64,000 bases of DNA from a virus (lineage: Duplodnaviria; Caudoviricetes). A program made the position numbers and the translations under genes. Location of the stretch: positions 32,001 through 96,000 of the IMG/VR virus record IMGVR_UViG_3300031555_004294; one strand, 5' to 3'. The number at the start of each line of letters is the position of its first letter. The stretch's first letter is position 1. The notes under the pieces were generated by a model. It saw only the letters and a list, made by a program, of their open reading frames with translations, did no database searches and had not been told where the DNA came from. Positions 3,016 to 52,000 of the stretch are shown piece after piece.

Positions 3016-3115
3016 TTTCATGTAAAAATATAATTTATCAAAACATTAAAAATGAATGAAAATTTTATTTATATATCATTACCTTAGTAAAATTTTAATA
3101 AGGAAAGGATAGACT

Positions 3116-6666: not shown

Positions 6667-6668
6667 TT

Positions 6669-7886
6669 ATGATGACTCTAAGTCCTATTATTGTATCGCT
6701 TCTTGATACTGATCTGTACAAGTTCAACATGAATCAGGTCATGTTCCATAAACACACTAACTTGAATGGTAAATATCTATTCAAGTGTAGAAATGAGAAT
6801 ATTGACTTTACTCCTGAAATGGTTAAGGAAATTAACGAACAAATTGACTATTTATGTTCTCTTACTTTTTCAGATGAAGAACTTGATTATCTTGGCTCTT
6901 TAAGATTTATTAAGAGTGACTATGTAGAGTTCCTTAGACTTTGGAGACCTCTCCGTAGATATGTAAATTGTTGGAGGTCTCCTAAGAAACTTGAAAATGG
7001 AAATATTATAGGAGACTTGAATATTACAATTGAAGGTCCACTCTTCTCAGTCATGCAATTTGAAATCTATCTTCTTGAAATTGTTAATGAAACCTATTTC
7101 AGAATGAAGTATGATTATATGCGTCTTATGGATTCTGCAAAAGAAAAACTTGATCATAAGATCGAAGGATTCAAAACAGAAGAATATAATTTCAAGTTTG
7201 CAGAATTTGGTTGTCGTAGAAGACTTTCCAGAGAATGGCAAGATTATGTAGTAGGTGAACTACTTAAAACTGGTAAGTGTGTTGGTACATCAAATGTTTA
7301 TCTTGCTATGAAATATGGTTGTAAGCCTATTGGAACTTATGCTCATGAGTATGTACAGATGTATCAAGGCATTCCTGGTGTTACTCTTGCATATACAAAT
7401 AAAATGGCAATGGAAGAATGGTTTGATGAATATCAAGGTGATAATGGAACTGCATTAACTGATACACTGGGAACTGATTTGTTCCTCATGGATTTCAACA
7501 AGCTTCAAGCTACCTGTTATACTGGGGTAAGACATGATAGTGGCGATCCTATTGAATGGGGTGAAAAGATTATCGCTCATTATATCAAGCTTGGCATTGA
7601 TCCCAAAACAAAGACTTTATTGTTTAGTGATAGTCTTAACTTTGTTAAAGCACAAGACATATATAACCATTTCAGAGGACGTATCAATGTAAGTTTTGGT
7701 ATTGGAACTTATCTCTCCAATGATACAGATGTTGATCCATTAAACATTGTTATCAAACTTCAGTATGTTAATGGACATCCTGTAGCAAAGATCAGTGATA
7801 CACCTGGAAAGGCAATGTGTCAAGATAATAGTTATCTTGCATATTTGAAAAACGCAGTCGATTATAGACTAAAGGAAAAAATTTAA
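6669..7886 (+). CDS. pncB: Nicotinate phosphoribosyltransferase
   Basis: SLLDTDLYKFNM, EFGCRRR, GTSNV, GTYAHE, RHDSGDP, FSDSL, FGIGT, KISDTPGK motifs. Confidence 0.93.
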   Translation: MMTLSPIIVSLLDTDLYKFNMNQVMFHKHTNLNGKYLFKCRNENIDFTPEMVKEINEQIDYLCSLTFSDEELDYLGSLRFIKSDYVEFLRLWRPLRRYVNCWRSPKKLENGNIIGDLNITIEGPLFSVMQFEIYLLEIVNETYFRMKYDYMRLMDSAKEKLDHKIEGFKTEEYNFKFAEFGCRRRLSREWQDYVVGELLKTGKCVGTSNVYLAMKYGCKPIGTYAHEYVQMYQGIPGVTLAYTNKMAMEEWFDEYQGDNGTALTDTLGTDLFLMDFNKLQATCYTGVRHDSGDPIEWGEKIIAHYIKLGIDPKTKTLLFSDSLNFVKAQDIYNHFRGRINVSFGIGTYLSNDTDVDPLNIVIKLQYVNGHPVAKISDTPGKAMCQDNSYLAYLKNAVDYRLKEKI

Positions 7887-32578: not shown

Positions 32579-34195
32579 TTGATGAAAGGCGGTGTATTTC
32601 ATTTGGCATTAAATTCTTTAGAAAATATAAAATCTACAGCATATCCTACATTTTTACAAAATATGAAAAAGTATTTTCATAAAATTTCTTTTTCAGCAAT
32701 CATAACTAATGATGATGGAACCACAACAGTTATAGATTTATCAGACGTTCTTTTTGATTTTAAAACTTTTAAGCTTTACAATGCATTTGTATTTCCAGTA
32801 GTTGCAGTATCTGTAAATTTAACGCCAAAACAACATAAGACTTTTGCAAATAACTTAGACAGGTTGCAATTTAGATTAAATCTAGAAAAATTTCAAGAAA
32901 CAGATATTTCAACAAATAACAACAGAATGTTTGATAAAACTACAGACAGTGTGTATAAAAATTTGATACTAGAATTATCAGACTACGAAAAACAACGTTT
33001 TATTGATGAAACTGAACGAAATAATAATGGATTTGAAGAGAGTATAAAGATTCCAGTTTACATGGAACTATTTAAGGCAGAACATTTAGCTATCAATAAA
33101 AATCCTATAAACGGAATTTTTAATGATGTAGATATGGACAGTTTACTAATACATCTCTTGAAAAAATCTAAACAAAAAATGTTAGTACAAAAATCTAATA
33201 GAAAAGAAAAACTAAAGCAAGTTGTATTACCAGGCAAGAATTTAGCACAAACTATTGAGTATTTACAAGAAGTTTATGGTATCTATAGATCTGGTTTACG
33301 ACTCTTTTTTGATTTTGATAGAGGGTACTGTTTATCGCATGATATCACAGAAAATGAGCCTGTATCTGAAAAAGAACCTATAGAGTATAAAAATGTAGTT
33401 TGCTATATAGATAGACAATCTGAAAGATCAACTAGTTCTTCTGGATGCTGGATGGATGATACAACTAAAACATATTATCTGCTGGCACCTAATTCAAATC
33501 AATTAGAAACCATGGATAAGTCATCCAAAAATATTTATGGGAATAAATTAGTCATCCAGTCATCAACTCAAGATAAAAAACAAGTTGATCAAAAAATTTT
33601 AGACAATAATTACAAAATAGAAAATAGTACAAATACCAAAACAGTACTTGAATCAAGAACTGTAACAAGAAATCAAGATTATACTGTAGCGAAAAATGAT
33701 ACATTGTCATCTATTGCTAGAAAATTTAATATCTCCGTGTCTGAAATTATCGCAAATAACAAAAATATTGTAAATGAAGACTCGATATATGTTAAACAGA
33801 CTATAAAAATACCAATTACAACTGTTGAGATTATTGAAGTTGACAAAATCCTATCTGAAGTTGAAAGTACTGTTAAACCAGATGAAAAAGAAGAAAAAGT
33901 TAAGTACTATTACAACACATCATCCAATTCATATGCTGAAGACGAGTTATTATCTAGGATAAATCGCAATGAGTTAAAGTATATAGGAAATTTTAAAGAT
34001 GTAGATGAAACATTTTTATCTATGAACAAAGCTATATATCTATCTTTCTTAGATGAGTCTTACACCAATTATAACGGTATGTATGAAATAGAAGGTATGG
34101 GTACAATTTATACAAAAATAGGAAAAAATATTTATGAAACGGATACTATAGTAACATTTACTAGATTAACAAAAGGATTTTTAGCATTCTCATAA
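32579..34195 (+). CDS. LysM-containing virion/baseplate-type protein
   Basis: YTVAKNDTLSSIARKFNISVSEIIANN LysM domain. Confidence 0.7.
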   Translation: MMKGGVFHLALNSLENIKSTAYPTFLQNMKKYFHKISFSAIITNDDGTTTVIDLSDVLFDFKTFKLYNAFVFPVVAVSVNLTPKQHKTFANNLDRLQFRLNLEKFQETDISTNNNRMFDKTTDSVYKNLILELSDYEKQRFIDETERNNNGFEESIKIPVYMELFKAEHLAINKNPINGIFNDVDMDSLLIHLLKKSKQKMLVQKSNRKEKLKQVVLPGKNLAQTIEYLQEVYGIYRSGLRLFFDFDRGYCLSHDITENEPVSEKEPIEYKNVVCYIDRQSERSTSSSGCWMDDTTKTYYLLAPNSNQLETMDKSSKNIYGNKLVIQSSTQDKKQVDQKILDNNYKIENSTNTKTVLESRTVTRNQDYTVAKNDTLSSIARKFNISVSEIIANNKNIVNEDSIYVKQTIKIPITTVEIIEVDKILSEVESTVKPDEKEEKVKYYYNTSSNSYAEDELLSRINRNELKYIGNFKDVDETFLSMNKAIYLSFLDESYTNYNGMYEIEGMGTIYTKIGKNIYETDTIVTFTRLTKGFLAFS

Positions 34196-34851: not shown

Positions 34852-34896
34852 AAAGAGGAAAGTGATTAAGTATCACTTTCCTCTTGTTTTTTTTTT
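34852..34896. terminator. Bidirectional terminator
   Basis: AAGAGGAAAGTGAT / ATCACTTTCCTCTT stem plus T tract between convergent genes. Confidence 0.75.
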
Positions 34897-34897
34897 G

Positions 34898-35802
34898 TTA
34901 AGACTCCCAGATTTCTTTCATCTTACGCTTCATCTCAATGATGAGCTTATTTGTGTATAGCATCGAATAACTATCTGTAGTCATACGTGATACTATAGAC
35001 ATGGGTGAGTAGATTGCTAAAATATTCTCATCAGGATATCTTTCAGAGAAAGGCTCTTCGCCTTTAGGTAATACGTCACTAACAATTGTCTTAACAGCAG
35101 TACCATAAACAACCTTATCGCCTGTCTTCAATCTGTCTCTATGTTTTACATAGAATTCGATAATGATACCTTCAAAGTCAATACCCTTAATCTTCTCGTC
35201 TTTGATCTGATCAACTCTTGGGAAAATTGTAGATTTGTTATTGGTATTCTCTACTATCTTCTTTCTAGTATTAACTTCTTTAGCATAGCTATCGATTAGC
35301 TTTTGAATGGACTCAGAACAAATTTCTTTAGGTACATTGTAGTAAACCTTAATGTCGATTATCTCACCAGAATACTTAGCTTTGATTGAGTCTTTACCCA
35401 TATCTTCTACAAACTCAGCAAAATCATCACCCATGCTATCAAGAATTCTATTTGCATCAGCATCTTCAAAAGTATGCTCGAAGGAAATTAAACTTTCACT
35501 AGTTTTAACATGTTGATGTTTTTTAACCATTTGTAGAATGTTTGTATTAGGTGCTAGCTTCACAGTAGTTGCCATAGTTACATAAGACGACATATTTTCC
35601 GAAACCTCATTTGTAATAACAGATGAGTCCTCTAATGTATAGTCACCCTGTGCTATAGCTACTTTTGCTAGTAAACCTTGAGAGAATGTAACTTTATCAG
35701 TTTTATTACCTAAGAAGAAATCACTATTCTTTGCTAGAATGTCATTCTTCTTAAATTTTTGACCTTCTTCGAAAAGTAGGTCTTTTTTGTTGGAAATGTA
35801 AA
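34898..35802 (-). CDS. rpoB: RNA polymerase beta subunit, exon 2
   Basis: Open frame from 35802: (F)YISNKK...GLLAKVAIAQGDYTLEDSSVI, GDKVVYGTAVKTIVSDVLP, YSPMSIVSRM (equivalent to beta GYNFEDA, GDK..GRHGNKG, NPLGVPSRM). Confidence 0.9.
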
Positions 35803-35936
35803 CATTAATATTTGCATAGAGACATTAATTCTATGACTGCTAGGCTTTTAAACCTAGATTAGACTATATCTTCTTGTACTTTCCTATTATACAATCATTT
35901 GACTGCAATATAGTCGTTGAACTTATCTTAAAAAAT
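35803..35936 (-). ncRNA. Group I intron 3' catalytic half (P6a 3' strand, R, P7.1, P3', S, P9, omega-G)
   Basis: ATTTTTTAAGATAAGTTCAACGACTATA...AAGATATAGTCTAATCTAGGTTTAAAAGCCTAG...AATG|. Confidence 0.88.
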
Positions 35937-35954
35937 GTAATTTTGAAAAATTTG

Positions 35955-35970
35955 AATATATATTCTAAAT
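35955..35970 (+). promoter_or_regulatory. Early-type promoter motif driving the intron-embedded operon
   Basis: AATATATATTCTAAAT, near-identical to AATATATATTCTAAGT at 23285; lies 19 nt inside the P6a arm. Confidence 0.6.
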
Positions 35971-36137
35971 GTAGATAAAAGGTGCTACGAATTAGATAGT
36001 AATTCTATCCTTTAACAGAATTGGCAAATGCAGATTTGAACTCTGTGTAAAGTCCCTGTTATAGCAGTAGTTAAATGGAATTTGAGAAACAGCCTTTAAA
36101 AATTTTTATACTTTTACTAAAAGGAGTTAACTACAAA

Positions 36138-37019
36138 ATGGAAAAAACTATCTACAACGGAATGGAATTTAATTACTATCAGATCGCTGAAATCCTGCTT
36201 GGTAATATGGAAGGTATTGATACATCTAACTACACTGATCCTAAAATTTCTTATCAAGAAATGCAAAAAATTAGATTGCGACTGGTTGAAGATAAGAAAA
36301 TTAAAGATAGTTGGTATGAAAATTTTGGTTTAAAACAGATTAACGGAAAATGGATGTCTGTTAGAAATATTAAACCTTGTCCTATTTCAGAAGGAAATTG
36401 CGATAAAGGAATTCAAATTCTGTTAGGTCTTAAAAAAGGGTTAGACGTATCTATTTACGCAAAACCTGAGTTTAGCGGTTTACAGATGCAGGAAATTAGA
36501 TTAGGTCTTGAAAAAGGGTTAGACGTATCTATTTACGCAAAACCTGAATATAGTCACCATCAGATGGACAAAATTCTATTTGGTCTTGAAAGAGGGTTAG
36601 ATGTGTCTATTTACGCAAAACCTGAGTTTGACAGTTGCCAAATGAATCAAATCATATGTTTTCTTGTAAGAGGATTTGACATAAATAAATATCTTGATGC
36701 AGGAATTACTAGTTCAGATATGTTATATGAAGCTGGACGTGGTCTTAATGAAGGTATAGACTTATTCGATTATGCTAAGCAGTTAAATGATTCAACTCAG
36801 CTTTATGAGATTTTAATGGGTATTCGAAAAGGAATAGATGTATCTGTATATGCTAAACCTGAGTTTAGCACCGATCAGATGTGTCAAATCAGAATAGGCC
36901 TTGAAAGGGGATTAGACGTATCTGCATATGCAAAACCTGAACTTAAAGCTAGTGTGATGAAACAGATCAGATTCTGTCTTCAAAAAGGACTAGATATGAC
37001 CGTACATCTTAAAACTTAA
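36138..37019 (+). CDS. Repeat protein (26-aa GLEKGLDVSIYAKPEF repeats), intron-embedded gene 1
   Basis: At least 5 well-conserved plus degenerate copies of Q.I..GL.KGLDVS.YAKPE; ATG 36138 after AAAGGAG. Confidence 0.8.
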   Translation: MEKTIYNGMEFNYYQIAEILLGNMEGIDTSNYTDPKISYQEMQKIRLRLVEDKKIKDSWYENFGLKQINGKWMSVRNIKPCPISEGNCDKGIQILLGLKKGLDVSIYAKPEFSGLQMQEIRLGLEKGLDVSIYAKPEYSHHQMDKILFGLERGLDVSIYAKPEFDSCQMNQIICFLVRGFDINKYLDAGITSSDMLYEAGRGLNEGIDLFDYAKQLNDSTQLYEILMGIRKGIDVSVYAKPEFSTDQMCQIRIGLERGLDVSAYAKPELKASVMKQIRFCLQKGLDMTVHLKT

Positions 37020-37050
37020 TTTTACTTGAACAAAAGGAGAACTAATAAAA

Positions 37051-37482
37051 ATGAATGTAACAACTTCAATCATTAACGAACACGGAAACCAACTCAAATT
37101 CACATCTATTCCTCGAAGATACACATCAGGAAATACAGAATATTGGAAGGAATATGATAAGAACGGTAATCTTATCTATGAAAGATTTTCCAATGACGTT
37201 GTAAGGACTCATCTCTATGATGCACAGGGTAAGTTTATCCTTACATACGATCCTTCAGAAATGGGAGCTATAGTAGCTATCCGTCTTTTCTATGATGAGT
37301 ATCGTAGTGTAATGGCAGAACTTGCTTTTGCATATGGAAGTACTCATACTATCGAATGGACTGATATAGCTCAGAGAAGAGCATTCCAGATCGGTATCAA
37401 TGGATATACTTTCATCTTTGATGAGAGAGATGTAGCTAAAGAAAAAACCTTCCAAGATTTTGTAAAAACAAAGGAGAACTAA
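37051..37482 (+). CDS. Hypothetical protein, paralog of 37713-38150 (intron-embedded)
   Basis: WKEYDKNGNLIYERFS / IGINGYTFIFDERD. Confidence 0.75.
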   Translation: MNVTTSIINEHGNQLKFTSIPRRYTSGNTEYWKEYDKNGNLIYERFSNDVVRTHLYDAQGKFILTYDPSEMGAIVAIRLFYDEYRSVMAELAFAYGSTHTIEWTDIAQRRAFQIGINGYTFIFDERDVAKEKTFQDFVKTKEN

Positions 37483-37486
37483 CAAA

Positions 37487-37681
37487 ATGAAACTTCGTGA
37501 TGTACTCAATGTTATTAGTGGTGGCACTAATATCAGAATCTCTGTCAACTGCAATACTATCTTTTCTGGTCGAATGGCCGATGTAAAGGTAACTGATTGG
37601 ACCAATACTGTCGGTCCTTATCTGGATAATGAAGTCTACAGACTCAATACTTTCAATGGTTACATAACTATCGCTTGCTAA
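37487..37681 (+). CDS. Small hypothetical protein (intron-embedded)
   Basis: SD AAAGGAG, 64 aa. Confidence 0.65.
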   Translation: MKLRDVLNVISGGTNIRISVNCNTIFSGRMADVKVTDWTNTVGPYLDNEVYRLNTFNGYITIAC

Positions 37682-37712
37682 AAATCACACAAGCAAAGGA
37701 GAATTAAACAAA

Positions 37713-38150
37713 ATGCTTGAATCTAAAACTATCATCGAAACTGAAAATGGCAATCGTCTTGAGTTTACGAATTTCACTCCTGACCAAATTAAATCCTATG
37801 GTAAGATCTGGAGGGAATATGATACCAATGGTAATCTTATTCATGAAAGATTTTCTACTGGAGTTATGAAAAACTATCTTTATGATGAGGATAATAAACT
37901 CATCGAAGAATATGATCCTATGGTAAAAGGAGCCATCAATGAAATTCGCATTTTCTATGACGAAGGTCATAAAATCAAGGCAGAACTTACTTTTGCCTTT
38001 GGTGGTACTACAATCATCGATTGGACTGATGTAACTCAAAGAGGACTCTATGAAATTGGTATCAACGCATATACTTTTATCTTTGATGAAAGAGATGCCG
38101 TTAGAGAAAGATTTTTCCAAGATTTTATAGTAACAAAGGAGACAAAATAA
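37713..38150 (+). CDS. Hypothetical protein, paralog of 37051-37482 (intron-embedded)
   Basis: WREYDTNGNLIHERFS / IGINAYTFIFDERD. Confidence 0.75.
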   Translation: MLESKTIIETENGNRLEFTNFTPDQIKSYGKIWREYDTNGNLIHERFSTGVMKNYLYDEDNKLIEEYDPMVKGAINEIRIFYDEGHKIKAELTFAFGGTTIIDWTDVTQRGLYEIGINAYTFIFDERDAVRERFFQDFIVTKETK

Positions 38151-38151
38151 A

Positions 38152-38595
38152 ATGTCATCTACTAATGCAGAATTCGAAATTGGAGAATTTGTAATAACAA
38201 CAGAAAAAATCCAAAATCACCATGGTTCTCTTGAAAAAGACATGGTTGTAGAAATAGTCGGTATAAACAAATCAAATCATACATACGATGTCTGTTTTGA
38301 TAGTGACGCTGGAAAGATTCTTGGAGTTCTTCGTGAAGTTAGTCATACAAGTCTCAAGAGATCTCCTATTCTTAACAGTTCTTATAGATTCACAGAATGT
38401 ACTAGAACTGCAGTAGAAAAAATAGAGCAAGCTATTTCCGTTATTTACGATCAAGATGCAAATGAAGAATGTATTAATGATCTTAAAAATGTCATTGAAC
38501 TTCTTTTTAAGGCTAGACACAATGTTCGTTTTACATTAACACCTGAGATGATCAAGAAATATGAAACACTCAACAAAGGAGAAATAACAAAATGA
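38152..38595 (+). CDS. Hypothetical protein, possible SH3-like N-terminus (intron-embedded)
   Basis: FEIGEFV...VEIVG...YDV pattern; C-terminal helix resembles 38592-38825. Confidence 0.65.
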   Translation: MSSTNAEFEIGEFVITTEKIQNHHGSLEKDMVVEIVGINKSNHTYDVCFDSDAGKILGVLREVSHTSLKRSPILNSSYRFTECTRTAVEKIEQAISVIYDQDANEECINDLKNVIELLFKARHNVRFTLTPEMIKKYETLNKGEITK

Positions 38596-38825
38596 AAATC
38601 AAAACAACAAATATCAATCAAGACAGCAATAAAATTGAAATCGATAACAACACCCAAAAATACATGGGTCATATCACATCTGCTATTGACAAGGCAGAAC
38701 AAGCTCTTTCGAGTATAACTTATACAAGTCATTCAGATGTAAACGAAGAGCCTATCAAGCTTATCAATAAAGCCATCGAACTTCTTGAAAAAGCTCAGGA
38801 TAGTACCATCTACAAACCTGTATAA
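38592..38825 (+). CDS. Small hypothetical protein (intron-embedded)
   Basis: AIDKAEQALS...AIELLEKA resembles AVEKIEQAIS...VIELLFKA of the previous ORF. Confidence 0.65.
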   Translation: MKIKTTNINQDSNKIEIDNNTQKYMGHITSAIDKAEQALSSITYTSHSDVNEEPIKLINKAIELLEKAQDSTIYKPV

Positions 38826-38842
38826 AGGAGATACCACAACAT

Positions 38843-39061
38843 ATGGAAACTTTTATAATTTGCTTTAAACTTGACAATGCTTATAGGATTTTAGATCAAG
38901 TTGCCATTGTCTATGCAAGAAATCAAGACCATGCAATAAGCCTTCTTAATGCAATGTATGAGAAGTGTCAGTATGAATCAATAAAGTCCATTTACAGTGT
39001 TAGCAAATTAAGTGAAGATGGTAATCCTACTATTTTCACATATACCCCAGCTTTATATTAA
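38843..39061 (+). CDS. Small hypothetical protein (intron-embedded)
   Basis: SD AAAGGAG; 72 aa. Confidence 0.6.
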   Translation: METFIICFKLDNAYRILDQVAIVYARNQDHAISLLNAMYEKCQYESIKSIYSVSKLSEDGNPTIFTYTPALY

Positions 39062-39072
39062 GGAGAACGACT

Positions 39073-39813
39073 ATGGTTACAAAATACAATGTCATTAATT
39101 TCTTTGAAAAAAGAAAAGGTGACCCAACTGTTCCTCATACAATAGATGAGAAACATGAAAACATCATCTACAAAGATACAGGTAAAGTCCTTGCTACAAT
39201 CGATGAGTACATGGCTGCTATGAAAAAAGTACTTCATTGTGACTTTGAACTCATCTATGATGAACATCCTTCCTGTTTCTCAGTCATCCGTTGTAAGGAA
39301 TGTGGAACTGTAATCTTTGAACGTTATGATGAAGATTATGATCCAAATCTTTGCTGTCCTACTTGTGGGGGCTATAAAACTTACTTTGATTTCTGGACGA
39401 AGGAAGAAATTGATAGTGATGAGGAAAAACAAAAAGCTATCAAAAACTACGAAGAAATGCAACGTGAGTTGGATGAGTCCTATGCAAGACGACAGAAAAG
39501 AGGAGGTCTTTATGATTGGGAGATTTGGAAAAAGAGAATTGAGTTCAAGAAAACCCTTTGGAATATCTCTCTTGAATGTGATAATCTTTTCTATAGCAAA
39601 CCAAAACTTAAAGGTCTAAAACTCATTATCAAAATGAGTAAAAGAGATCCTGAATATGACGACATGTTTGTCTGGAAGAAGTCTACAAGAATTCCTCTAT
39701 CTTGGTATGCTTTCTACATACATTGTATTCTCCCATACTCTAAAACATGTCCAGAAGAATTACGCAAGTACCATTTCTGGCAGAAGAAACCTAAAGATCA
39801 GGAGGAAGGATAA
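39073..39813 (+). CDS. Zinc-ribbon-containing hypothetical protein (intron-embedded)
   Basis: CKECG and CPTCG pairs. Confidence 0.7.
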   Translation: MVTKYNVINFFEKRKGDPTVPHTIDEKHENIIYKDTGKVLATIDEYMAAMKKVLHCDFELIYDEHPSCFSVIRCKECGTVIFERYDEDYDPNLCCPTCGGYKTYFDFWTKEEIDSDEEKQKAIKNYEEMQRELDESYARRQKRGGLYDWEIWKKRIEFKKTLWNISLECDNLFYSKPKLKGLKLIIKMSKRDPEYDDMFVWKKSTRIPLSWYAFYIHCILPYSKTCPEELRKYHFWQKKPKDQEEG

Positions 39814-39816
39814 TTT

Positions 39817-40275
39817 ATGCACAACATCACTACAAGATACAAAGAGATTAAAGTTTGGTCTGCAAGTAAATTTAATCTCATCATCGCTATCGTTTTCATC
39901 GTTCTTACTGTACTGCTTGAAGCAGGAATTTTACACTGTATATTTACAGATAAAATTGGAAGTGCTGTTTTATTACAGTTTATGGTATCACCAATAACAA
40001 TTGTAGTTGCATCATGTGGAATTGGTACTTATAAACGAAGAAAAGAATTTACATTATACTTCAGCCAAATTGATGACGTTATTGATATCTCAAGACTTAA
40101 ATCTGAATATCATCTTTGCATGATTGATGGGTATGGTGTATTATTTATCAAAAACGATGATATACCTTCATATTCTGATTGGACTACTTTTGGTAGCTAT
40201 AATTCTACTTATAGAATTGAAGAAAAGTTTTTTAAAAATAGCACAATTTCTTTCATTACTAAAAAGGAGGACTAG
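39817..40275 (+). CDS. Membrane protein with two TM helices (intron-embedded)
   Basis: LIIAIVFIVLTVLLEAGIL and AVLLQFMVSPITIVVASC hydrophobic segments. Confidence 0.65.
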   Translation: MHNITTRYKEIKVWSASKFNLIIAIVFIVLTVLLEAGILHCIFTDKIGSAVLLQFMVSPITIVVASCGIGTYKRRKEFTLYFSQIDDVIDISRLKSEYHLCMIDGYGVLFIKNDDIPSYSDWTTFGSYNSTYRIEEKFFKNSTISFITKKED

Positions 40276-40279
40276 AATA

Positions 40280-40450
40280 ATGAAAACCTATAGTGTAAGT
40301 ATACTTCATAAAACTGGTAGGGTTGTAAGACCTTATATCTTCAACGTTGAAGCATCAAATGAAAAAGATGCAGAGAATGAAGTCATGAGTAAAGTTAAAG
40401 CTCTTAATCTTAAAGGATCTTTAAGCGTTGATTTCGTTGAAGAAATTTAA
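40280..40450 (+). CDS. Small hypothetical protein (intron-embedded)
   Basis: ATG 40280 after AAAGGAGG; MKTYSVSI...VEASNEKDAE. Confidence 0.65.
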   Translation: MKTYSVSILHKTGRVVRPYIFNVEASNEKDAENEVMSKVKALNLKGSLSVDFVEEI

Positions 40451-40473
40451 CAAACAGAAAGGAAAATATCGCC

Positions 40474-40734
40474 ATGATGACTAAAACCCAATTTGCAAAA
40501 AAGATCGTTGAAGGATTTTGCAAAGATGTTGACTACAGAACTATTACTGATTGGTCTCCTTATATCTGTATGAGTAGTAGACTCGCAGTTGCATTAGAAT
40601 TCCTTGGATTGATTCCGAAGGATTCTTATACAGAATCTAGAGGAGGAATTGAAATGGTTTACTATGACAAGGAGAATAATGAGTCTGCAATTCTTTCAAC
40701 CAGAGAACTTCTTTCGTTGCTTCCTGATGAATAA
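40474..40734 (+). CDS. Small hypothetical protein (intron-embedded)
   Basis: 86-aa ORF with SD AAAGGA. Confidence 0.65.
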   Translation: MMTKTQFAKKIVEGFCKDVDYRTITDWSPYICMSSRLAVALEFLGLIPKDSYTESRGGIEMVYYDKENNESAILSTRELLSLLPDE

Positions 40735-40748
40735 TTAAAGTTCAAGAA

Positions 40749-41190
40749 AGTGTTAAGGGATCACTTTAAATATCCCTTCTCTAATTTATAAAACTAGAAA
40801 GGAAATATGTTAACCATGAAACGTGAATATATTGACAACGAAGAAATCATGAGTAACGATACTATTGAAATGGAGCATATCGTCACTGCAAAAAGGATTG
40901 AAAATAATATTGTGCTTTTTCAAAACGTAATTGCTAGTTTTTCAGGTGTAAAACTTACCGATGGTAAAGGCCCAAATGATCCAGATGAAGATGCATTTTG
41001 TGAGTTCAAATACAAAGATGATAAATTTTACTATAGAGATAGTCTCACAAAAGAGTTTGAAGAAGTTACATATGCTTTTTGGACGAATACTCTCTTATAC
41101 TATGTTTCTGAAGGACATAGTATTCATTATTTCAATGAAGACTAATTCATCTACATACAGTGTTAAGGGATCACTATAAATGTCCCTTCT
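40749..41190 (+). repeat. 32-nt direct repeat (2 mismatches) containing a hairpin, flanking ORF 40807-41145
   Basis: AGTGTTAAGGGATCACT(T/A)TAAAT(A/G)TCCCTTCT at 40749-40780 and 41159-41190. Confidence 0.85.
40807..41145 (+). CDS. Hypothetical acidic protein (last intron-embedded gene)
   Basis: 112-aa ORF with SD AAAGGA. Confidence 0.65.
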   Translation: MLTMKREYIDNEEIMSNDTIEMEHIVTAKRIENNIVLFQNVIASFSGVKLTDGKGPNDPDEDAFCEFKYKDDKFYYRDSLTKEFEEVTYAFWTNTLLYYVSEGHSIHYFNED

Positions 41191-41197
41191 TTTTTTA
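41165..41197 (+). terminator. Terminator of the intron-embedded operon
   Basis: AAGGGA...TCCCTT hairpin plus T tract, ending just before the P6a arm. Confidence 0.7.
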
Positions 41198-41199
41198 TA

Positions 41200-41286
41200 A
41201 TTTTTTAAGATAAGCTGCTGATTATACAAAATTTTGTATGTTCCAGCAATTAAGGAAGTTTATCAAGGTGATCAATAATAAATTTC
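41200..41286 (-). ncRNA. Group I intron 5' half (P1/IGS, P3, P4, P5, P6a 5' strand)
   Basis: |GAAATTTATTATTGATCACC...AATTGCTGGAACATACAAAATTTTGTATAATCAGCAGCTTATCTTAAAAAAT. Confidence 0.88.
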
Positions 41287-44200
41287 AACCACCATTAGAG
41301 TTTTTACTAATACGTTCAGATATATCAATTACATCTGTCGTACCATCTTTGTAACGAATTATTACTAACTCGTTCTTTGTATCTACCTTTTCTACTACAC
41401 CATCTTGTTCTGCAATAGATACAAAGTCAGAGGATAAAGTATAAGGTAGAGTTCTTTCTATACCAGAGCCATATAAAGGTCTGGATTGTTTTTCAGTGGG
41501 AACTGAGTGTTTCGCTTGTTGCGTCTGCATTCCAATTCTCGGAGGATCCGCATGAAGTGAGGTATAGCAAGACAATAGTTCACCAGCTGTTAGCATATTA
41601 GTTGCTGCTAAGTCTTGAACGTTAGTATTTGTATCGATGAAACCAAAATTGTTAGTTACTTTAGGATTATAACTGAGCTGACGAGTTACGCCAACCTTAT
41701 TACTATCAGGTGAACTTATTCCAAGTAGACCAACCATACTTTGGTCGTAAGATCTCATTTGAGGTGTAAAGGCATCATCTAAATTAGTACCTCCGATACC
41801 CTTATAAGTTGTTGATCCAAGTCTTTCAATTTCAAGCACAGGACTAAGTGTCGAATATGCTTCAACAATAGGACTTTCAACCAACTTCTTAATTACAGCA
41901 TCAGGACTGTGTAATGAAATCTTTCTATCAGTATAACCTGACTTATAAGCATCTTTATATTCCCTAACAGCTTCAGATAACACATCATACAATGTTGCAT
42001 TAACAGTTTCTATACTACGTAGACGATAGTTTTTCATATCATTTACAGGTACATAACTGTTATCAGACAATAAAGTATTACAATGTAACAAAACTCCTAA
42101 AAGGTCATTAGGAAGTTTCATGTAATCTAAAATTTCTTTAGTCTTAGGGTCTAAAAGGAAGTTCAAAGTATTTTGGAAACCTTTAGCTAAGTTTCTCTTA
42201 CCATAACGTAAATCAAAATACTCGATGTAAATACCTTTTTCATTCATAGCTGCAAATTCAGTTTCCTTCAAGAAAGGAATGTCATTCAATCCATTCATGA
42301 GTAAACTGTTTCTTAATGGAGTAGACTTATAGTTCAGATAACCATCAGCAAATCTTATAGATGACCATAATGAAACATCGTCATCATCTAATTGCTTCTT
42401 TTTTTCTGAGAACTCGTATTCTATTCCATATCTAAGCATTACATTTTCTAAACCAAAATAGAAACCTGTAAGAATAATTAACGGAATCATAGTTCCAGTT
42501 ACTTTAGTTCTTACATACATGAACTTAGAAGAAACTTTTTGATTTAGCAGCTTCTTATAAAGTTCTGTCTCTTCATGTTGTTTAAAAATACTTAGGACTA
42601 GATTGAAAATTGAAGTATAAGTTGTACTAGCTTGAAGTTTCAAAGCTTCATTCAAGTTAGAATTGTAGGAATGAATTAAACCATCTTCTACGTTGATAGT
42701 ATAAATGATACCATTTACTTTGTTAACTCCTAGCAAGTACTCTCCTTCTGGAATTGAATCATCAATACTTCTATCTAAGAATTCTGAAATCTCAGCATTT
42801 ACTTTATCTCGGTTAAAACATAACATAACGTTTCTGTTATAGTCAAACGAGAGCATATATCTAGAAACTTCGTCATACTCCATTAGAGTTGAATATTTAG
42901 AGTTAACTTGGACGCAATTTCCTAACTTTACAGAAATCTTTCCTTTATGACTAGGTGCATCTTTCAAAATAAAATTCTTCAATTTGTCAGAGTTAGATGA
43001 AAGTTTGGAATTAAATCTCCAGAAAAACATCTTACCCTTGTCAGTAGAAATTGAAACTTCGTTTGGCTTATTTTTAGTAATTGGTAGCTTCATTAACTGT
43101 TTACCAATACTAACTTTGTGATCATTAAGATACATGAACGAATTATCATAAATGATAGGCATCTCGATGTTAACGATATGTCTATTACCCCAACCATCTT
43201 CGTAATTGACCTTAATGAGTTCTTTCTTGTTAATTTCATCTGAGATATCTTCTCTTGAGAGGTCAGTTATATAAATAGGACATTCTGGATCATTATTAAA
43301 CGCAGAAAGGACTTTAATCAAGTCTTTATCTTTTTGATTCTTAACGTAGTTTCTATCTAATTCTTTAAGAGTACAAGTTTTTACTTCCTCATTCAGTGTG
43401 TTAATGTTTATCGTTTCTGTATTAATAGAATGAACTTCATGGTCATGCAAAATGTTATCAATATTGAGTGGCTTGTTACTCACTTTAATATTGACATCAA
43501 CTTTATTTTGCTTTTCCTTAAGTCGTTCTAACTTATTTTCAGGAACTGTAGTCTGATTATTTTTCAAATTGACGAGATAATTCAAAAATCTCTCATCATT
43601 ATTAAGTTCATCTTCTAGTTCATCAACATTGTTAAAGGAAGTTGCTTTATTATCAATGGTTTTTTCAATTCTATCTAGAAGTTCTAAATCATCCGTGTTT
43701 AAAGCAATTTTGTCTGTCAGTTTTAGTCCTTTTACAATCTTATTTTTAATGGGTTTTGCTATATCAGCTTTAACCTGTTTTGATTGTAAATTCTTAATTT
43801 TTTCTGAAGATTGTTTATTTGTTACAGATAAAACTTTACTACTGGATTGAACTATTTGATTATCAGAATTCTGAATTTCTGCTTCTTCTTCCTTATCCAA
43901 CTCTATTCCATTAGAAATTTTATACAAGATGTTTGAAAGTTTCTTGAATTTAGCTAATGAAAATTTTGGATCAGAAAAGTCTACTAAAAACATTCTCGTA
44001 TTGTTTTTATCAGAAAATACGAACTTGTATTTTTTAAAGAACTCGTAATCAAAAGTTCCCTGTTTAAGCATGAAATACAAGATATTTTCAAAACTAAATA
44101 TACGTCCAGTAGTAATTAGCTCTTTAGGAATTACTTGAATGAAAACTTCAGAATAACTATTAGTTTTACCTAAAATTTCTTTTAAAAATGGTATGAATGG

Positions 44201-44617
44201 TTTTAATTTACTTTCAAAACTTTTATAAGATTTATACGTCTCTTCAAATACTTTATAATATCCATAGGTATCAAAATAAGTATTGTATCCTCCATATAAA
44301 TCTAATTTGATTCGCTTAAAAGTAATATTTGGACTTTTAACATCCATTTCTTTGTACTTTACATCTTGTAAAGTATCTACTTTTCTACCCCTACAAGAAG
44401 CTAATTTTTCTGTTTTATAAGGATAGAAGTAACCTTTTACAAATTGTTTGATAAACAGATTGGAGTTAATGATGTCATAAACATCTGATGAAGATGTATT
44501 CAACGAAAATATTAATCGACCTTTTTGTTTATTAGTATTTTCATCATTACTTAGATAGAGGTTATAATTTTTATAAAGATACAAATTTTTATCTAAATCG
44601 TAGTAATTAACCCTCAT
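41287..44617 (-). CDS. rpoB: RNA polymerase beta subunit, exon 1 (spliced product predicted 1411 aa; likely virion RNAP)
   Basis: RSYDQSMVGLLGISSPDSNKVGVTRQL, HADPPRIGMQTQQAKHSVP (beta DANRALMGSNMQRQAVP equivalent); ends at KNSNGG at the splice site. Confidence 0.9.
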
Positions 44618-44648: not shown

Positions 44649-44660
44649 TAGTATTTTGTT
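44649..44660 (-). promoter_or_regulatory. AR9-type late promoter motif upstream of RNAP beta
   Basis: AACA-AAATAC-TA 32 nt before the ATG; SD AAAGGAGG in between. Confidence 0.55.
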
Positions 44661-46764: not shown

Positions 46765-46841
46765 TGGGGTGTAGCCAAGTGGCCTAAGGCACGAGACTTT
46801 GACTCTCGCATTCGAATGTTCAAATCATTCCACCCCAGCCA
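46765..46841 (+). tRNA. tRNA-Gln(TTG)
   Basis: Cloverleaf, CGAGA-CTTTGAC-TCTCG, encoded CCA. Confidence 0.92.
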
Positions 46842-47055
46842 ACGGTATATTTGTTAGAAGCATCGACAAGGATATGAGTTGTTGGAGTACTATGAAGAGT
46901 AAATGCGAGATTATCGCAGTTAGCCACCTAAGCAATGCGTGCATGTAATGGATATTAGTTTCAAATATTGAGTTCTCCGCCAATTCCAGAGTATGACTGA
47001 CCTTCAACAGAAAACTGTAAAACAAAGAGGGAAATAAGACATATGAAAGAGGTTT

Positions 47056-47610
47056 ATGAAAATGAGCAAATCAATGCTATTTAATTGGGCATTCAAGCGA
47101 ATTTTAGGGTTAAGAGATGTTGGTGTATTCTTTAAGGTAATGAAGGAGCGCAAAGAAATTAAAACACAAGTTAATCTTAAAGGAGCCATAAGTTCTCCTA
47201 ATCATCTTAGCGAAATCATTGTTGGTCATGATGAACAGATTGATAAATGGATTGAGCCTATGGCTGCTGGAACTGAAAGTTGCCCTTATTGGGATTGTAC
47301 AAGACTGTTCTACGGCAAGGAGGCTAACTTTGACTGGGGCGAAAAGAATATGGAATATTGGCTTGGTATGAGACAAACAGTTCTAGCTCCTATCATCCCT
47401 ATTCCGATTTGTGCTTATGAGGAAGTCTATATTCTTGGTGAATCGGATAAGGCTTTTAGAGATTGCATGAAGAAGTATGGTAAAGCTCGTGCTTTCCATG
47501 ATCACGCTGAAGAGTTTGGTGCAAAGAAGATAATTGATAAAACAAATGTCTACTTTATGCAATGTGACATTTCTTATATGAAAGACCCTGTGTGGTCTAC
47601 TTGTGAGTGA
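47056..47610 (+). CDS. Hypothetical protein inside the tRNA cluster
   Basis: 184-aa ORF, SD GAGG. Confidence 0.6.
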   Translation: MKMSKSMLFNWAFKRILGLRDVGVFFKVMKERKEIKTQVNLKGAISSPNHLSEIIVGHDEQIDKWIEPMAAGTESCPYWDCTRLFYGKEANFDWGEKNMEYWLGMRQTVLAPIIPIPICAYEEVYILGESDKAFRDCMKKYGKARAFHDHAEEFGAKKIIDKTNVYFMQCDISYMKDPVWSTCE

Positions 47611-47746
47611 TGTAGTCGCTATACAAATGACTATCTTTTTGTGAAATTATATTTCACACAAGTGAGCCTCTGTTGTGAACAGACTCCAAGGCTACGGCGA
47701 TTGGCCTCTCGAAAGAGTTAAAAATCGCCATTTATTTCAAATAATT

Positions 47747-47837
47747 GGAGAGATACCCAAGAGGTCGAAGGGGGCGGTCTACTAAACCGCTAGGGCATGT
47801 AAATGTTGCAAGAGTTCAAATCTCTTTCTCTCCGCCA
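47747..47837 (+). tRNA. tRNA-Ser(ACT), unusual A34 anticodon
   Basis: GGAGAGA/TCTCTCC acceptor, G discriminator, long variable arm, GCGGT-CTACTAA-ACCGC. Confidence 0.85.
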
Positions 47838-47888
47838 AATATTTATTAAAGTTCTCAGTAGTTTTAACCTGTTGGGAACTTTATCTAT

Positions 47889-47963
47889 GCTGGTGTGGCT
47901 CAATGGCAGAGCAGCTGATTTGTAATCAGCAGGTTGATGGTTCGAATCCGTTCACCAGCTCCA
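47889..47963 (+). tRNA. tRNA-Thr(TGT)
   Basis: GCTGA-TTTGTAA-TCAGC, CCA. Confidence 0.93.
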
Positions 47964-47966
47964 TTT

Positions 47967-48041
47967 CGGGATGTAGCGTATTGGTTACGCACTAGTTTTG
48001 GGAACTAGATCAAGTAGGTTCGATTCCTATCATTCCGACCA
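47967..48041 (+). tRNA. tRNA-Pro(TGG)
   Basis: CTAGT-TTTGGGA-ACTAG, CCA. Confidence 0.9.
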
Positions 48042-48129
48042 GAAATATTGATTAAAGTCTTGATATTTTAAATTACTAGACTTTAAATTTTTAAAAATCT
48101 GAGTAATAAATAATTATTCAGATTTTTAT

Positions 48130-48205
48130 TCCTCCTTAGCTCAGTCGGCAGAGCACCTGACTGTTAATCAGGGTGTCGCTGGTTCAAGCCCAGCAGGGGG
48201 AGCCA
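48130..48205 (+). tRNA. tRNA-Asn(GTT)
   Basis: CCTGA-CTGTTAA-TCAGG, CCA. Confidence 0.93.
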
Positions 48206-48247
48206 TATTAAAGTCTTGATAAATTAAATCATCAAGACTTTACATTT

Positions 48248-48323
48248 GCAGTAGTAACTCAATTGGTAGAGTGCTAGCCTTCCAAGCTGGATGTCGCGAG
48301 TTCGAGCCTCGTCTACTGCTCCA
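48248..48323 (+). tRNA. tRNA-Gly(TCC)
   Basis: CTAGC-CTTCCAA-GCTGG, CCA. Confidence 0.93.
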
Positions 48324-48467
48324 ACAAAAAATTTAAATCAAGTTTTAAATACATATTTTAAACTTGAAAAAAAAGGAAACGTATTAAAGTAAATTTTAAA
48401 TACATATTCTTATTCTGTAAAAAGAAAATGAATTACATGACAAATGTTAACACTTTCCTTTACATAT

Positions 48468-48554
48468 GGGGGTATGGCGGAACAGGTAGACGCAAGGGAC
48501 TTAAAATCCCTCGGTAGAGATACTGTGAGGATTCGAATTCCTCTACCCCCACCA
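48468..48554 (+). tRNA. tRNA-Leu(TAA)
   Basis: AGGGA-CTTAAAA-TCCCT, long variable arm, CCA. Confidence 0.93.
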
Positions 48555-48607
48555 CTCGTTTAGGTAATTCTATCCTATAATAGAATTACCTAAACATTTT
48601 TATTTAT

Positions 48608-48684
48608 GGGACATTAGCTCAGTTGGTCAGAGCATTCGGCTCATAACCGAACGGTCCAAGGTTCGAGACCTTGATGTCCCACCA
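48608..48684 (+). tRNA. tRNA-Ile2/Met(CAT), Ile2-like body
   Basis: TTCGG-CTCATAA-CCGAA; body resembles Firmicute lysidine tRNA-Ile2. Confidence 0.88.
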
Positions 48685-48689
48685 TATAT

Positions 48690-48765
48690 GATCCATTAGC
48701 TCAGATGGCAGAGCACATGACTTTTAATCATGGTGTCCGGAGTTCGACTCTCCGATGGATCACCA
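48690..48765 (+). tRNA. tRNA-Lys(TTT)
   Basis: CATGA-CTTTTAA-TCATG, CCA. Confidence 0.93.
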
Positions 48766-49023
48766 AAGGCAATTGTAACTATTTCTATAGCTTCAATTGT
48801 TTTCAATTTTTTACAACCCTATAAGTAGCATTCAAAGTTACTTATAGGGTGAAAATTTTATTTTTTTTTTTGCATTCTATACAATCTTTCCTATTTTTAT
48901 CATTTTAGTAGTTTAACCTTCTTAGAACAAAGTATTAATACAACTCTTGTATTGACAAACAATAAAAATTTCTTACAAAAACATCAGAAAATATATTACA
49001 TGAAAGGAGGGAAATTTGTAAAA

Positions 49024-52000
49024 ATGCCTAAAAATTTTGGTAAAAATTTAGCTAAATCTTTTAAGTATGGTGTTGTAGATACATTTTTAGAAAAGACTGC
49101 CCCAGATATAGCAGAACAATTAAAATCTGGTAAAGAAGATATTAAGTCTGCTTTAGAGAAAGCTAGTGCTTCTAACAATGGTAATATTAAGAAAAATCAA
49201 TCATCCAGTACTAAAAATGGTTTAGGTGATATGCGTAAAAACATACTAGCTGATATTAAATCTGGTAACTGGTTTGGTAATAAAGACCGAGCTGCACAGT
49301 CTATGATGAGTAGTATGGGCTTAGATGAAATGCTTGGTGATGATGATTTTTTAGATGGTTTAGACTTTAAAGAAGGTACTACAACTATTACTAAAGATCA
49401 AAAGACTGGAGATATTGATTTTTCATTTGAAACTACAAATGAAACTCATGTTACCGATAATCGTACTAACGTTCGTAATATCACTCAAATCCAAAATAAT
49501 AAAGTAGATGGCAAATTATTGGCTACTGTAACTTCACAGATGGTCGGTAATATGTCCACTATTTCTACACAAATTAAACAAATTTCTCAATTTCATCTAG
49601 ATGAAACTAGACGTTACTATAGTGATAGCTTGCGTCTGTTGACAGATATAAATGAAACTTTAAAGAAGTCTTATACCTTACAGACTCCTAAAGGTCAAAC
49701 TAGTGTGTTGAATGAGGTATTCAATGGTGGTAGTTTAAGTTTAGAAGCTTATGGAAAAGCTTTAACTAAGGGTATGATGGGTGGTATGCTGGATAAAGAT
49801 ACCATGGAAATGGGTAAAATGATGGTATCCAACCTGTTTGCTGACCCTATGAAAACTGCTATTGGTTTGGCTATGGATGCTGCTATACCTAAAGCTGTTA
49901 AGAAGGGTATGGGAGATTTAAATGAAAACTTCACTAAAACTATGAAGACATTGGTTTTACAGTTAAGTGAAGGTAAAAAAGGTAAAGGTAGTCCTTTACA
50001 AAAATTTTTAGGTAGTATTCTAGGTTTAGATTTAGGAACTGCTAAAGTTAAATTTGAAAACAAAGTTGTACCATTTGATAGTGAAACTAAACGTAGTATA
50101 GTTAATACTATCCCTGAATTATTACTTAAAATCCATGGTGCTATTACTAAGCTAGGCGGAACTGGAAATGGTACTGGTAGTGTAAAAGAACTTAAAATTG
50201 ATCCTGAAACAGGTCTACCAACTTATAAAGAAATAAAAAAAGAAAGAAAAGCAGATAGACAATTTGCTAGTAAATTAGTTGGTGATAAGTACGATTATAG
50301 TAGTGCTGGGTTATCTGAAGAAGGAATAAAAGCACAACAGACTATAGACAGACTAGAAAAGAAAATTAAAGAACTGCAAGATAAAAAGCTAGGTGTTCTT
50401 GATACAAGTCAAGATGGTAATATTTCTACTGCTAGAAAATTACTTCACAGACAGCAAATGTCTTTGTCTAGTGCTGATAGGGAAAAAATTAAAAAAGCTC
50501 AACTTTCTCGTGATGAAAATTTTGAGGAGTATTCTGAATTACTTTACAAACTTTATAGTACTTCAGATCGTGGACTAAATAGTTCTGTTTTAAAAACAAT
50601 TCAAGCTAAAGAATTTGATAGACGAGCTAATGGCGGAACAGTATCAGATAAATCTTTCGATCAAATGATAAAAGAATTATCACCTGAACAGCAAAAAGTA
50701 TTAGGTAAAATGATACGAGATATAGAAACTACACCAGGTAATAAAAAGTCTACTAAAAATACTAATAAAAAAGCTGGTGAAATTTGGTCAGAAGCTAAAG
50801 AAGGTAATAAAGGTTTTAAAGGCTTTTTTAGAACATTGGCTACTTTTACCAATGAATATTCCAAACAACTTTTTGACAATTTAAATAAAGGTCTGTCAAA
50901 CATAATGTTTGGTAATGAAAAAGGTCTTAAACATAATTTATCTAAAAAAGTTGGTTCATGGGCAGATAAACATGCGGATGACAAAGGACCACTTGGTTGG
51001 GTTGCAAAAAGAACTAAAGGATTTTTGGATAAACGTAAACAAGAAGAAGAGTTACGTCAAAAACAAATGGCTGACGATCAAAATGCAACTCGTATTGCTG
51101 TTGAAACTTTATTACAAGAAGCACAAAGTGATAACTGTATTTCTGTCAAAGTTCAACGTATTGGTGATAAAGCTAAAGAAACTTTTGAAAACATTCAAAA
51201 TAACGTAGCTGAAAAAATGGGTGTTGAAACTGATGGTAAAACTGGTAAAGAAATCAGAAAAGGCATCTTTGCATCTGCAAAACGCAAGTTTAAGAGTAAT
51301 TTTATCACAGATAAAATGAAAGAAGCAGGAATGTCTGAAGATGATAAGCTAACCACACTTTTACATCATCGTATGAAAGAATTTATGGAACCAATCACTG
51401 CTACTTTTAAAGAACAGTTCTTTGGTGATGATGAAGATTCTGTAAAAAACCAAATCAGATTCTTCTTAACTGGTAAGAAGAAAAAAGGTGATGAAAAGAC
51501 TGGTAAAAGTTTGTTAGATAGACTTTCTGGCGATTTTCTTAGCTATCTTAGAAATCCTGATGGAAAGAAAGAGATAAATAATCCAAATAGTTTCTTAAAT
51601 CAATGGAAAGAAATCGGTTTAACATTCTTTGAAGAGTTTAAGTATCTTACCAAGAATTTTATTAAGATGGCATTTAATGGTCTTAAGAGATACTATAAGT
51701 TTTTACTTGTTGATATTCCTAAGAAAGTTTTAGGTATGTTTGGTAGAACTAAAACTGGTGAAAAATTTAAATCTTTCGGACGTGAAATGGGCGAAAGAGT
51801 TATGGGTGTTACTAATGTTTTTAGAAGAATGTCAACTTCTTTACAAGAAGATCAAATCTCTAGAATAAACAAAAACTTTTTATCAGATGAAACAGAAGAA
51901 TACGATCTCAATAATGGTAAAAAAGGCAAACGTAGAAAGTTAAATGTTGATGCCATTAGCAGTGCATCTAACGAGGAAAAGGCACAACTTCTTAAGAACA

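Follow-up and report, generated by a model that had tools for sequence, protein, structure and literature searches.

A group I intron with twelve antisense genes between its ribozyme halves interrupts the virion RNA polymerase beta gene of a putative AR9-like gut phage

The interrupted beta gene

We analysed a 64,000-nucleotide (nt) stretch of viral DNA, hereafter the window, which forms part of a 156.9-kb IMG/VR virus record (IMGVR_UViG_3300031555_004294; estimated completeness 61%) from animal fecal metagenomes. The sequence has a guanine-plus-cytosine content of 31% and is judged to come from an uncultivated AR9-like giant gut phage, whose genome would measure roughly 300 kb. Its minus strand encodes, in two separated parts, a beta-like subunit of the virion RNA polymerase (RNAP): exon 1 occupies 41287-44617 and exon 2 occupies 34898-35802. 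Between them lies a group I intron of 5,484 nt (41286-35803), and between the two halves of its ribozyme lie 12 genes on the opposite strand. The splitting of the virion RNAP beta gene by a group I intron was confirmed as real, and it recurs within this phage clade. At the level of sequence analysis, the anatomy of the intron, its conservation, its covariation and the requirement for splicing are all established.

The upstream part of the gene is a minus-strand open reading frame (ORF; 41285-44617, 1110 amino acids) that ends with the residues SNGG, read from GGT GGT T|GA, where the first bases of the intron form the TGA of the unspliced message; exon 1 itself holds 1110 codons and the first base of a Phe codon. 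In tblastn searches it matched AR9 g189, which is annotated as a virion RNAP beta subunit, as well as the beta subunits of other jumbo phages. Exon 2 supplies the last two bases of the Phe codon followed by a frame that is open from 35800 to 34898 (300 codons and a stop), starts with YISNKKDLLF, carries the GDYTLED, GDK and SRM motifs and shares 47% identity with the last, C-terminal exon of AR9 g189. In the predicted ligated RNA, GGTGGTT is joined to TTTACATT, giving a product of 1110 + 1 + 300 = 1411 amino acids with the junction SNGG-F-YISNKK.

The gene is uninterrupted in Staphylococcus phages S6, SA1 and MarsHill, Listeria phage LPJP1 and Bacillus phage Goe21, where a single codon separates the two matches, and the same spacing without an intron is seen at five distant metagenomic loci (L013-L017). 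Overall, at least ten relatives have a continuous gene. Because these intron-less relatives match both parts with one codon between them, the junction is exact to the codon. An intron lies at the identical codon in AR9, in Bacillus phage vB_BpuM-BpSp (BpSp; KT895374) and in a relative from IMG/VR, L008 (contig IMGVR_UViG_3300029305_004950; 319,626 bases, estimated complete). A megablast search of GenBank phages with the whole region returned no match, an exact-match search of IMG/VR for 30 nt of the 3′ ribozyme half returned the L008 contig as its sole match, and a scan of metagenomes returned distant, intron-less relatives only.

The exon 2 proteins of the window phage and L008 are 85% identical, and across their first 69 codons, which include GDYTLED, we counted 23 synonymous and 12 non-synonymous codon differences. 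These codons are under purifying selection. In neither phage does the interval from the last in-frame stop to the first conserved exon 2 codon contain an ATG, GTG or TTG. Since the 69 codons are conserved as coding sequence and lack a start, they would be translatable only once joined to exon 1, and splicing is therefore required. Directly upstream of the exon 1 Shine-Dalgarno sequence (44637-44628) lies a candidate late promoter, AACAAAATACTA (44649-44660, minus strand), which fits the AR9 late-promoter consensus AACA-(6N)-TA (PMC5312081); the motif is short and, read by analogy with AR9, suggestive only. Beyond exon 2, a bidirectional terminator with a 14-bp stem (34853-34885) is common to the beta gene and a convergent plus-strand gene.

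Two ribozyme halves and a long-range P6

The 5′ half of the ribozyme (41200-41286) and its 3′ half (35803-35936) both lie on the minus strand and are 5,263 nt apart (35937-41199). In the 5′ half, an internal guide sequence (IGS), GATCACC (41273-41267), opposes the exon sequence GGTGGTT (41293-41287) in a 7-bp P1 with a U.G pair at the 5′ splice site, and is followed by the 5′ strand of P3 (41259-41253), P4 (TGCTGG at 41248-41243 with TCAGCA at 41221-41216), P5 (41239-41224) and the 5′ strand of P6 (41214-41200). The 3′ half opens with the 3′ strand of P6 (35936-35922) and runs through R, the 5′ strand of P7 (35922-35910), a P7.1 hairpin (35907-35890), P3′ (35885-35878), S, the 3′ strand of P7 (35872-35861), P9 (35857-35840) and P9.1 (35835-35815) to an omega-G at 35803, which is also present in AR9, in BpSp and in the same-site intron of L008 (L008-B). 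P3 is formed by ACUUCCU and AGGAAAGU and contains a single bulge; its C-to-U change in L008-B leaves a G.U pair. The group IA core set of P3, P4, P5, P6, P7, R, S and P7.1 was thereby located in full. No P8 hairpin was found between P3′ and the S element of P7′, where only ACAAG lies (35878-35872). P8 is also missing from L008-B and from the compact same-site intron of AR9; it is present in three compact introns of the window phage's own genome (I1-I3), in an intron of its terminase gene (I4) and in a second beta-gene intron of L008 (L008-A).

Covariance models recovered the two halves separately. With the Rfam model RF00028 (gathering threshold 50 bits), the region 41190-41296 gave a 3′-truncated match to model positions 1-122 (14.5 bits, E 0.08), and 35840-35960 gave a 5′-truncated match to positions 105-253 (22.3 bits, E 5.6e-4). 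A second model, R1, was built solely from the compact introns I1-I3, whose core reads TTAATTGCTGGAA...AATCAGCA, a P6 hairpin, GTTCAACGACTA, then P7.1, P3′, P8 and AAGATATAGTCT. R1 matched the 3′ half of the window intron with 31.4 bits (E 1e-5, model 112-206) and the 5′ half with 15 bits (E 0.1, model 54-111). In the window, L008-A and L008-B, both halves were recovered and the matches break at model positions 111|112, within P6; in I4 and BpSp, R1 recovered the 3′ part only, from positions 112 and 118, respectively. An unconstrained cofold of the two halves with ViennaRNA returned P1, P4, P5, an intermolecular P6, P7 with P7.1 nested in it, P9 and P9.1. In the family alignment, 89.6% of cells were paired, a share that fell to 70.9% in shuffles and to 29-41% when the partners were slid. 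Both members had changed in 27 pairs. The alignment was fitted to the model and is hence biased towards it. P1 covaries with a synonymous exon change (GGUGGUU/GAUCACC here, GUGGGU/GCUCAC in AR9). Together, the model matches, the covariation and the folding support the assignment of the putative ribozyme to group I, subgroup IA.

Between the window phage and L008-B, the ribozyme halves are ~95% identical and the exons 82-87% identical at the nucleotide level. The differences between the halves consist of loop changes, the wobble-compatible C-to-U in P3 and three compensatory events, namely G-C to A-U in P9, C-G to U-A in P9.1 and a 1-bp deletion in P6 that is matched on both strands.

The P6 arms, CTTATCTTAAAAAAT (41214-41200, directly after P4′) and ATTTTTTAAGATAAG (35936-35922, directly before R), pair perfectly over 15 bp and close a loop of 5,263 nt. 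They form the sole perfect inverted repeat of at least 13 nt in the region, with a chance of ~4e-9 per anchored register and a duplex energy of -13.9 kcal/mol, compared with -3.8 +/- 1.8 kcal/mol in shuffles (0 of 2000 reached it). The P6 elements of L008-B, L008-A and I4 have energies of -12 to -14.5 kcal/mol and differ in sequence. Across all four cargo-bearing introns P6 measures 13-16 bp, versus 5-8 bp in compact introns. By the same comparison of duplex energy with shuffles, no significant long-range P6 was found in the same-site intron of BpSp. We also considered whether the 15-bp repeat marks the ends of a transposon and rejected this, as the arms occupy the P6 position of compact introns and their sequence differs across the four introns.

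The initial annotation had given the exon ends, the 1411-amino-acid join and the IGS, U.G pair, P4, P5, R, S, P9 and omega-G, and all of these were found again where it had placed them, the junction codon now being set by the intron-less relatives. Its list of elements had overlooked P3, P6, P7.1 and the missing P8. Its 5.5-kb group I intron with 12 plus-strand genes between the halves is now borne out by model matches, covariation and folding, with one change to the 12 ORFs: the tenth starts at ATG 40280 and encodes 56 amino acids.

The antisense genes and their counterparts in related introns

The plus-strand genes in the loop are c1 (36075-37019), c2 (37051-37482), c3 (37487-37681), c4 (37713-38150), c5 (38152-38595), c6 (38592-38825), c7 (38843-39061), c8 (39073-39813), c9 (39817-40275), c10 (40280-40450), c11 (40474-40734) and c12 (40807-41145), and 11 of the 12 starts have an AGGAG-type Shine-Dalgarno sequence 7-10 nt upstream. 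Ahead of c1 lies a predicted early promoter of the virion-RNAP type, GAATATATATTCT-(AAATGT)-A (35954-35973, plus strand; motif 35954-35966), which agrees at 12 of 13 positions with the phage's own recurring motif AAATATATATTCT, found upstream of genes in this genome, and at 11 of 13 positions with the experimentally defined AR9 early promoter AAATATATATTAT-(6N)-G (PMC5312081). Because its TTCT end is asymmetric, the promoter points along the cargo. After c12, a hairpin, AAGGGATCAC...GTCCCTT, followed by the T-run CTTTTTTTATAATTTTTT, forms an intrinsic terminator (41165-41199, plus strand); read on the sense RNA of the beta gene, the hairpin is preceded by an A-run and lacks a U-tail. The equivalent position in L008-B, L008-A, I4 and BpSp also has a hairpin and T-run. 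The cargo mRNA predicted from these signals (~35973 to ~41200) falls inside the P6 loop and is complementary to none of the core elements. The loop content is thus predicted to be a complete antisense unit of early promoter, 12 genes and intrinsic terminator, with the features of a moron-like cassette.

The hairpin TTAAGGGATCAC..TAAAT.TCCCTT occurs twice in the cassette, between c11 and c12 with a weak T-run (40755-40778) and in the final terminator (41165-41188), and a third copy of the hairpin ends the unrelated cassette of L008-A (L008:6100-6125). This repeated hairpin may be a shared terminator module, or may reflect modular accretion or exchange of cassettes gene by gene.

None of the 12 cargo proteins matched a Pfam, PHROG or NCBIfam family above cut-off, and for their function tblastn against phages and one ESM Atlas look-up yielded nothing usable. 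Some features were apparent nonetheless: c2 and c4 are paralogs (53% identity); c1 consists of ~36-amino-acid tandem repeats (GLxKGLDVSIYAKPEF...) and matches only the unannotated human-fecal phage contigs MT836110 and MT835757; c8 has a zinc-ribbon-like CxxC pair and a sub-threshold zinc-ribbon match; and c9, judged by eye, looks like a membrane protein. No homing endonuclease of the LAGLIDADG, GIY-YIG, HNH, His-Cys or PD-(D/E)xK type was found in the 12 cargo proteins or in five sense-strand ORFs, and none was found with Pfam, PHROG and NCBIfam in the cargo of L008, BpSp or I4.

Similarity between the window and L008-B collapses at the cargo, with the exception of the early promoter, which is kept in L008-B although the adjoining cargo is unrelated. 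L008-B carries a shorter antisense cargo of ~5 ORFs, among which one small ORF is weakly related to a window ORF. L008-A lies after the residues HADPP (L008:6003-7565), where the window beta gene is continuous; it contains an antisense ORF of 397 amino acids (6139-7332), a 15-bp P6 (CTATAAAAATGTAAA / TTTACATTTTTATAG) and a canonical P7.1-P3′-P8. The terminase-gene intron I4, outside the window (L006:1501-2130; G000:C1 ~33536-34165), consists of a 5′ half, a hairpin, one antisense ORF of 94 amino acids, the early promoter CAAATATATATTCT, a 13-bp P6 TCATTTATAAAAA and a 3′ half, and its hairpin has a U-run in the sense direction too, so that it is terminator-like both ways. Hence three further introns (I4, L008-A and L008-B) are built on this frame, with cargo that is unrelated and P6 helices of differing sequence. 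The L008 genome as a whole gave 22 R1 matches, several of which cover just a 5′ half (model 53-111) or a 3′ half (model 112-206; e.g. 239554-239634 / 238275-238386, 4156-4250, 3025-3091), and at least five of its introns appear to be split by inserts.

AR9 g189, the orthologous virion RNAP beta gene, has six exons, and one of its introns holds an early promoter and the early gene g190, which encodes an HNH endonuclease (PMC5312081; KU878088). AR9 thus shares with the window the nesting of an early gene with its early promoter in an intron of a late gene, and at the same SNGG|F codon it too bears a group I intron (L002 2056-2359), in which the P4 core, R and S are the same. That same-site intron, however, is compact (304 nt) and empty, and g190 is a single homing endonuclease gene in another intron, on the same strand as its host gene, whereas the window intron holds 12 antisense genes with their own terminator and no endonuclease.

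In BpSp, gp248, gp247-gp246 and gp245 are annotated as separate RNAP beta fragments and hypothetical proteins, yet they comprise an intron at the same codon, with a 5′ half homologous to that of AR9 and two opposite-strand ORFs between the halves that end in a hairpin and T-run just inside the 5′ half. It differs in having only two antisense ORFs (1.4 kb) and a 4-bp P8; its R element is degenerate, and the interval from gp246 to R is too short for an early promoter. Two introns of the BpSp beta gene contain opposite-strand ORFs, one with gp249 (L001:5229-5931) and one with gp247 and gp246 (L001:7369-8996). As BpSp is a cultivated phage, the antisense-ORF arrangement is compatible with viability.

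These comparisons bear on two further proposals of the initial annotation. It had suggested that the intron serves as a landing site for accessory genes, and had named an intron-less gene, a small intron and different cargo as what related phages might show. Each of the three was found, and the landing-site view is strengthened by the compact intron of AR9, the two antisense ORFs of BpSp and the ~5 unrelated ORFs of L008. The accessory status of the cargo also held, in that no homologs of c8 or c2 were found anywhere in the complete 319.6-kb L008 genome.

Group I introns with foreign DNA in a peripheral loop are known from other systems. The T-even introns, such as T4 td with I-TevI, are group IA introns with a P7.1 core and an ORF with its own expression signals in the P6 loop; the T4 td type carries one sense-strand homing endonuclease gene and is ~1 kb in total. 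The window intron resembles them in its probable subgroup, its P7.1 and the foreign DNA in P6, and differs in that the T-even cargo is one sense gene. To our knowledge, phage group I introns have been viewed as small selfish elements carrying at most one homing endonuclease gene, and a literature search found no paper on antisense multi-gene cassettes in phage introns. Outside phages, the ND5-717 intron of hexacoral and corallimorpharian mitochondria is a group I intron with many ordinary genes in a peripheral loop and a length of up to 18-19 kb (PMC6545197), and therefore multi-kilobase, gene-filled loops are compatible with splicing. Its cargo differs in lying in P8 and in being a mitochondrial gene set, and its processing differs as well. 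Coral-type back-splicing was rejected for the window intron, because it requires a permuted precursor from a small circular genome, a route unavailable in a phage genome of ~300 kb.

Elsewhere in the window, a cluster of nine tRNA genes (46765-48765, plus strand) includes a tRNA-Ser(ACT) (47747-47837) that was called by ARAGORN only and is under the Rfam tRNA threshold. The cluster adjoins a plus-strand ORF of 2221 amino acids (48952-55617), within which an R1 match (55301-55427) was dismissed as chance.

Splicing in cis, alternatives and significance

In our preferred reading, to which we assign a probability of about 0.6, the late beta-like gene is broken after SNGG by a functional subgroup IA intron whose P6 loop is the antisense unit, and one read-through RNA is spliced in cis. 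Early in infection, the injected virion RNAP would transcribe the cassette, producing an mRNA that overlaps no ribozyme core element. Later, a second phage RNAP would start upstream of exon 1 and pass both the hairpin without a U-tail and the 5.2-kb antisense stretch. The 15-bp P6, with P3 and P7, would then unite the halves, and guanosine-initiated cis-splicing would join the exons into the 1411-amino-acid protein. The long P6 could also keep the halves together if the loop were cut, for example as double-stranded RNA (dsRNA) with leftover early mRNA. Consistent with splicing in cis, both exons are colinear on one strand, the late-type motif AACA-(6N)-TA precedes exon 1, and the cargo terminator has no sense U-tail. 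No strong intrinsic terminator was found on the sense strand of the intron, where AACA-N6-TR occurs once in 5.5 kb, compared with ~5 expected from its genome-wide density, and never near the 3′ half.

Several points weigh against cis-splicing by a functional intron. Splicing, read-through, timing and catalysis are all steps that we infer from the sequence, and the termination and promoter rules of this phage's polymerases are known by analogy with AR9 only. A 5.2-kb antisense loop could form dsRNA with early mRNAs. Each half alone scores under the RF00028 gathering threshold, and a core without P8 is atypical; such a core is presumably active, since both diverged phages retain intact exons. 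A significant long-range P6 is missing from BpSp, which alone among cultivated phages has antisense ORFs here, and the sense U-run of I4 means that separate transcripts would be favoured there.

A different model, which the initial annotation had also allowed for, is that the ribozyme is bipartite and two separate RNAs, paired through the 15-bp P6, P3 and P7, are spliced in trans; it includes a precursor that is first cut inside the loop. We consider this model unlikely, though a serious contender. A T4 td intron split in its P6a loop is reported to trans-splice in vitro. The extension of P6 in the four cargo-bearing introns would provide the kind of pairing on which natural trans-splicing group I introns depend (PMC2731911, PMC3873408), yet closing a 5.2-kb loop in cis needs a long P6 equally, and the element is thus needed in both models alike. 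Separate transcripts are also favoured by the hairpin of I4, with its sense U-run immediately after the 5′ half, and by the palindromic core of the early promoter (AATATATATT); read in the sense orientation, however, this motif is a poorer match to the phage consensus (11 of 13 positions, +1 being a pyrimidine). The several hundred nt that precede the 3′ half contain no AACA-N6-TR in any of the four introns, the window hairpin after the 5′ half lacks a sense-strand U-tail, and the exons are colinear on one strand. The trans-splicing mitochondrial introns of Isoetes cox1 (PMC2731911) and Prasinoderma rnl (PMC3873408) are similar in that a peripheral loop is where their ribozymes are interrupted and base pairing is expected to bring the two parts together, but those parts are encoded at separate loci or on different strands and were shown to be separate transcripts, whereas the halves in the window are colinear and separate transcription signals were not found. 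A broader proposal adds to trans-splicing of separate RNAs that the P6 arms, early promoter and terminator form a swappable slot for accessory early-gene cassettes in essential genes; we think it improbable and offer it as speculation. If trans-splicing took place, it would mark the first natural case of a bipartite group I intron outside organelles, and likewise the first in any virus.

Two other explanations dispense with splicing or with the cassette altogether. The beta gene could be a plain split gene, like other jumbo-phage RNAP subunits, or a decaying one, with the intron-like ends as relics. The beta and beta′ subunits of jumbo phages are indeed often encoded in pieces (PMC5312081), both ribozyme halves are under the Rfam threshold, P8 is missing, and an ATG at 35593 could begin a 231-amino-acid product. 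The 69 codons upstream of that ATG, however, hold GDYTLED, evolve as coding sequence and are startless in both phages, and the intron-less relatives are uninterrupted across the block that contains the break. In addition, conservation is higher in the ribozyme halves than in the exons, the halves show compensatory changes, and both exons have stayed intact despite a nucleotide divergence of 13-18% between the two phages, which leaves a gene without splicing very improbable. Misassembly, with a 5.3-kb cassette wrongly joined into a compact intron, would fit several observations: the source is a metagenomic IMG/VR record, intron sequences are repeated in the genome, read depth peaks at 41230-41280, and one contig from the fecal run X1 joins 35934 to 41159 with a shorter side of 30 letters, skipping 5,224 nt. 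Against this, another X1 contig spans 35905-36462 with zero differences, a contig from X2 spans 40453-41188, the independent L008 contig from another sample has the same architecture at the same site, and the frame of promoter, terminator and P6 recurs in three other introns; we regard an artefact as scarcely credible. The X1 joint was also considered as a strain without cargo or with a different one, which is too weak to claim from 30 letters and a joint that does not reveal the content between its ends.

At this locus, the intron of an essential and highly conserved gene is host to a full operon of 12 genes that runs on the opposite strand under control signals of its own. Such a frame, with other contents, is found at further essential-gene sites, in the terminase gene and at a second site in the beta gene. 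The locus also sets an annotation trap: gene callers give two beta 'fragments' and overlook the intron, as occurred in the published BpSp genome. It further offers a natural system in which to study the closing of a 5-kb loop by a ribozyme and whether that ribozyme acts as a single molecule or as two. Together, our results suggest that introns in essential genes of this phage group double as carriers of ordinary accessory genes. The ribozyme may shield the host gene from the insert, while the essential gene may make the site hard to delete, and intron loops may thus be an unrecognised place where giant phages store and swap accessory early genes.

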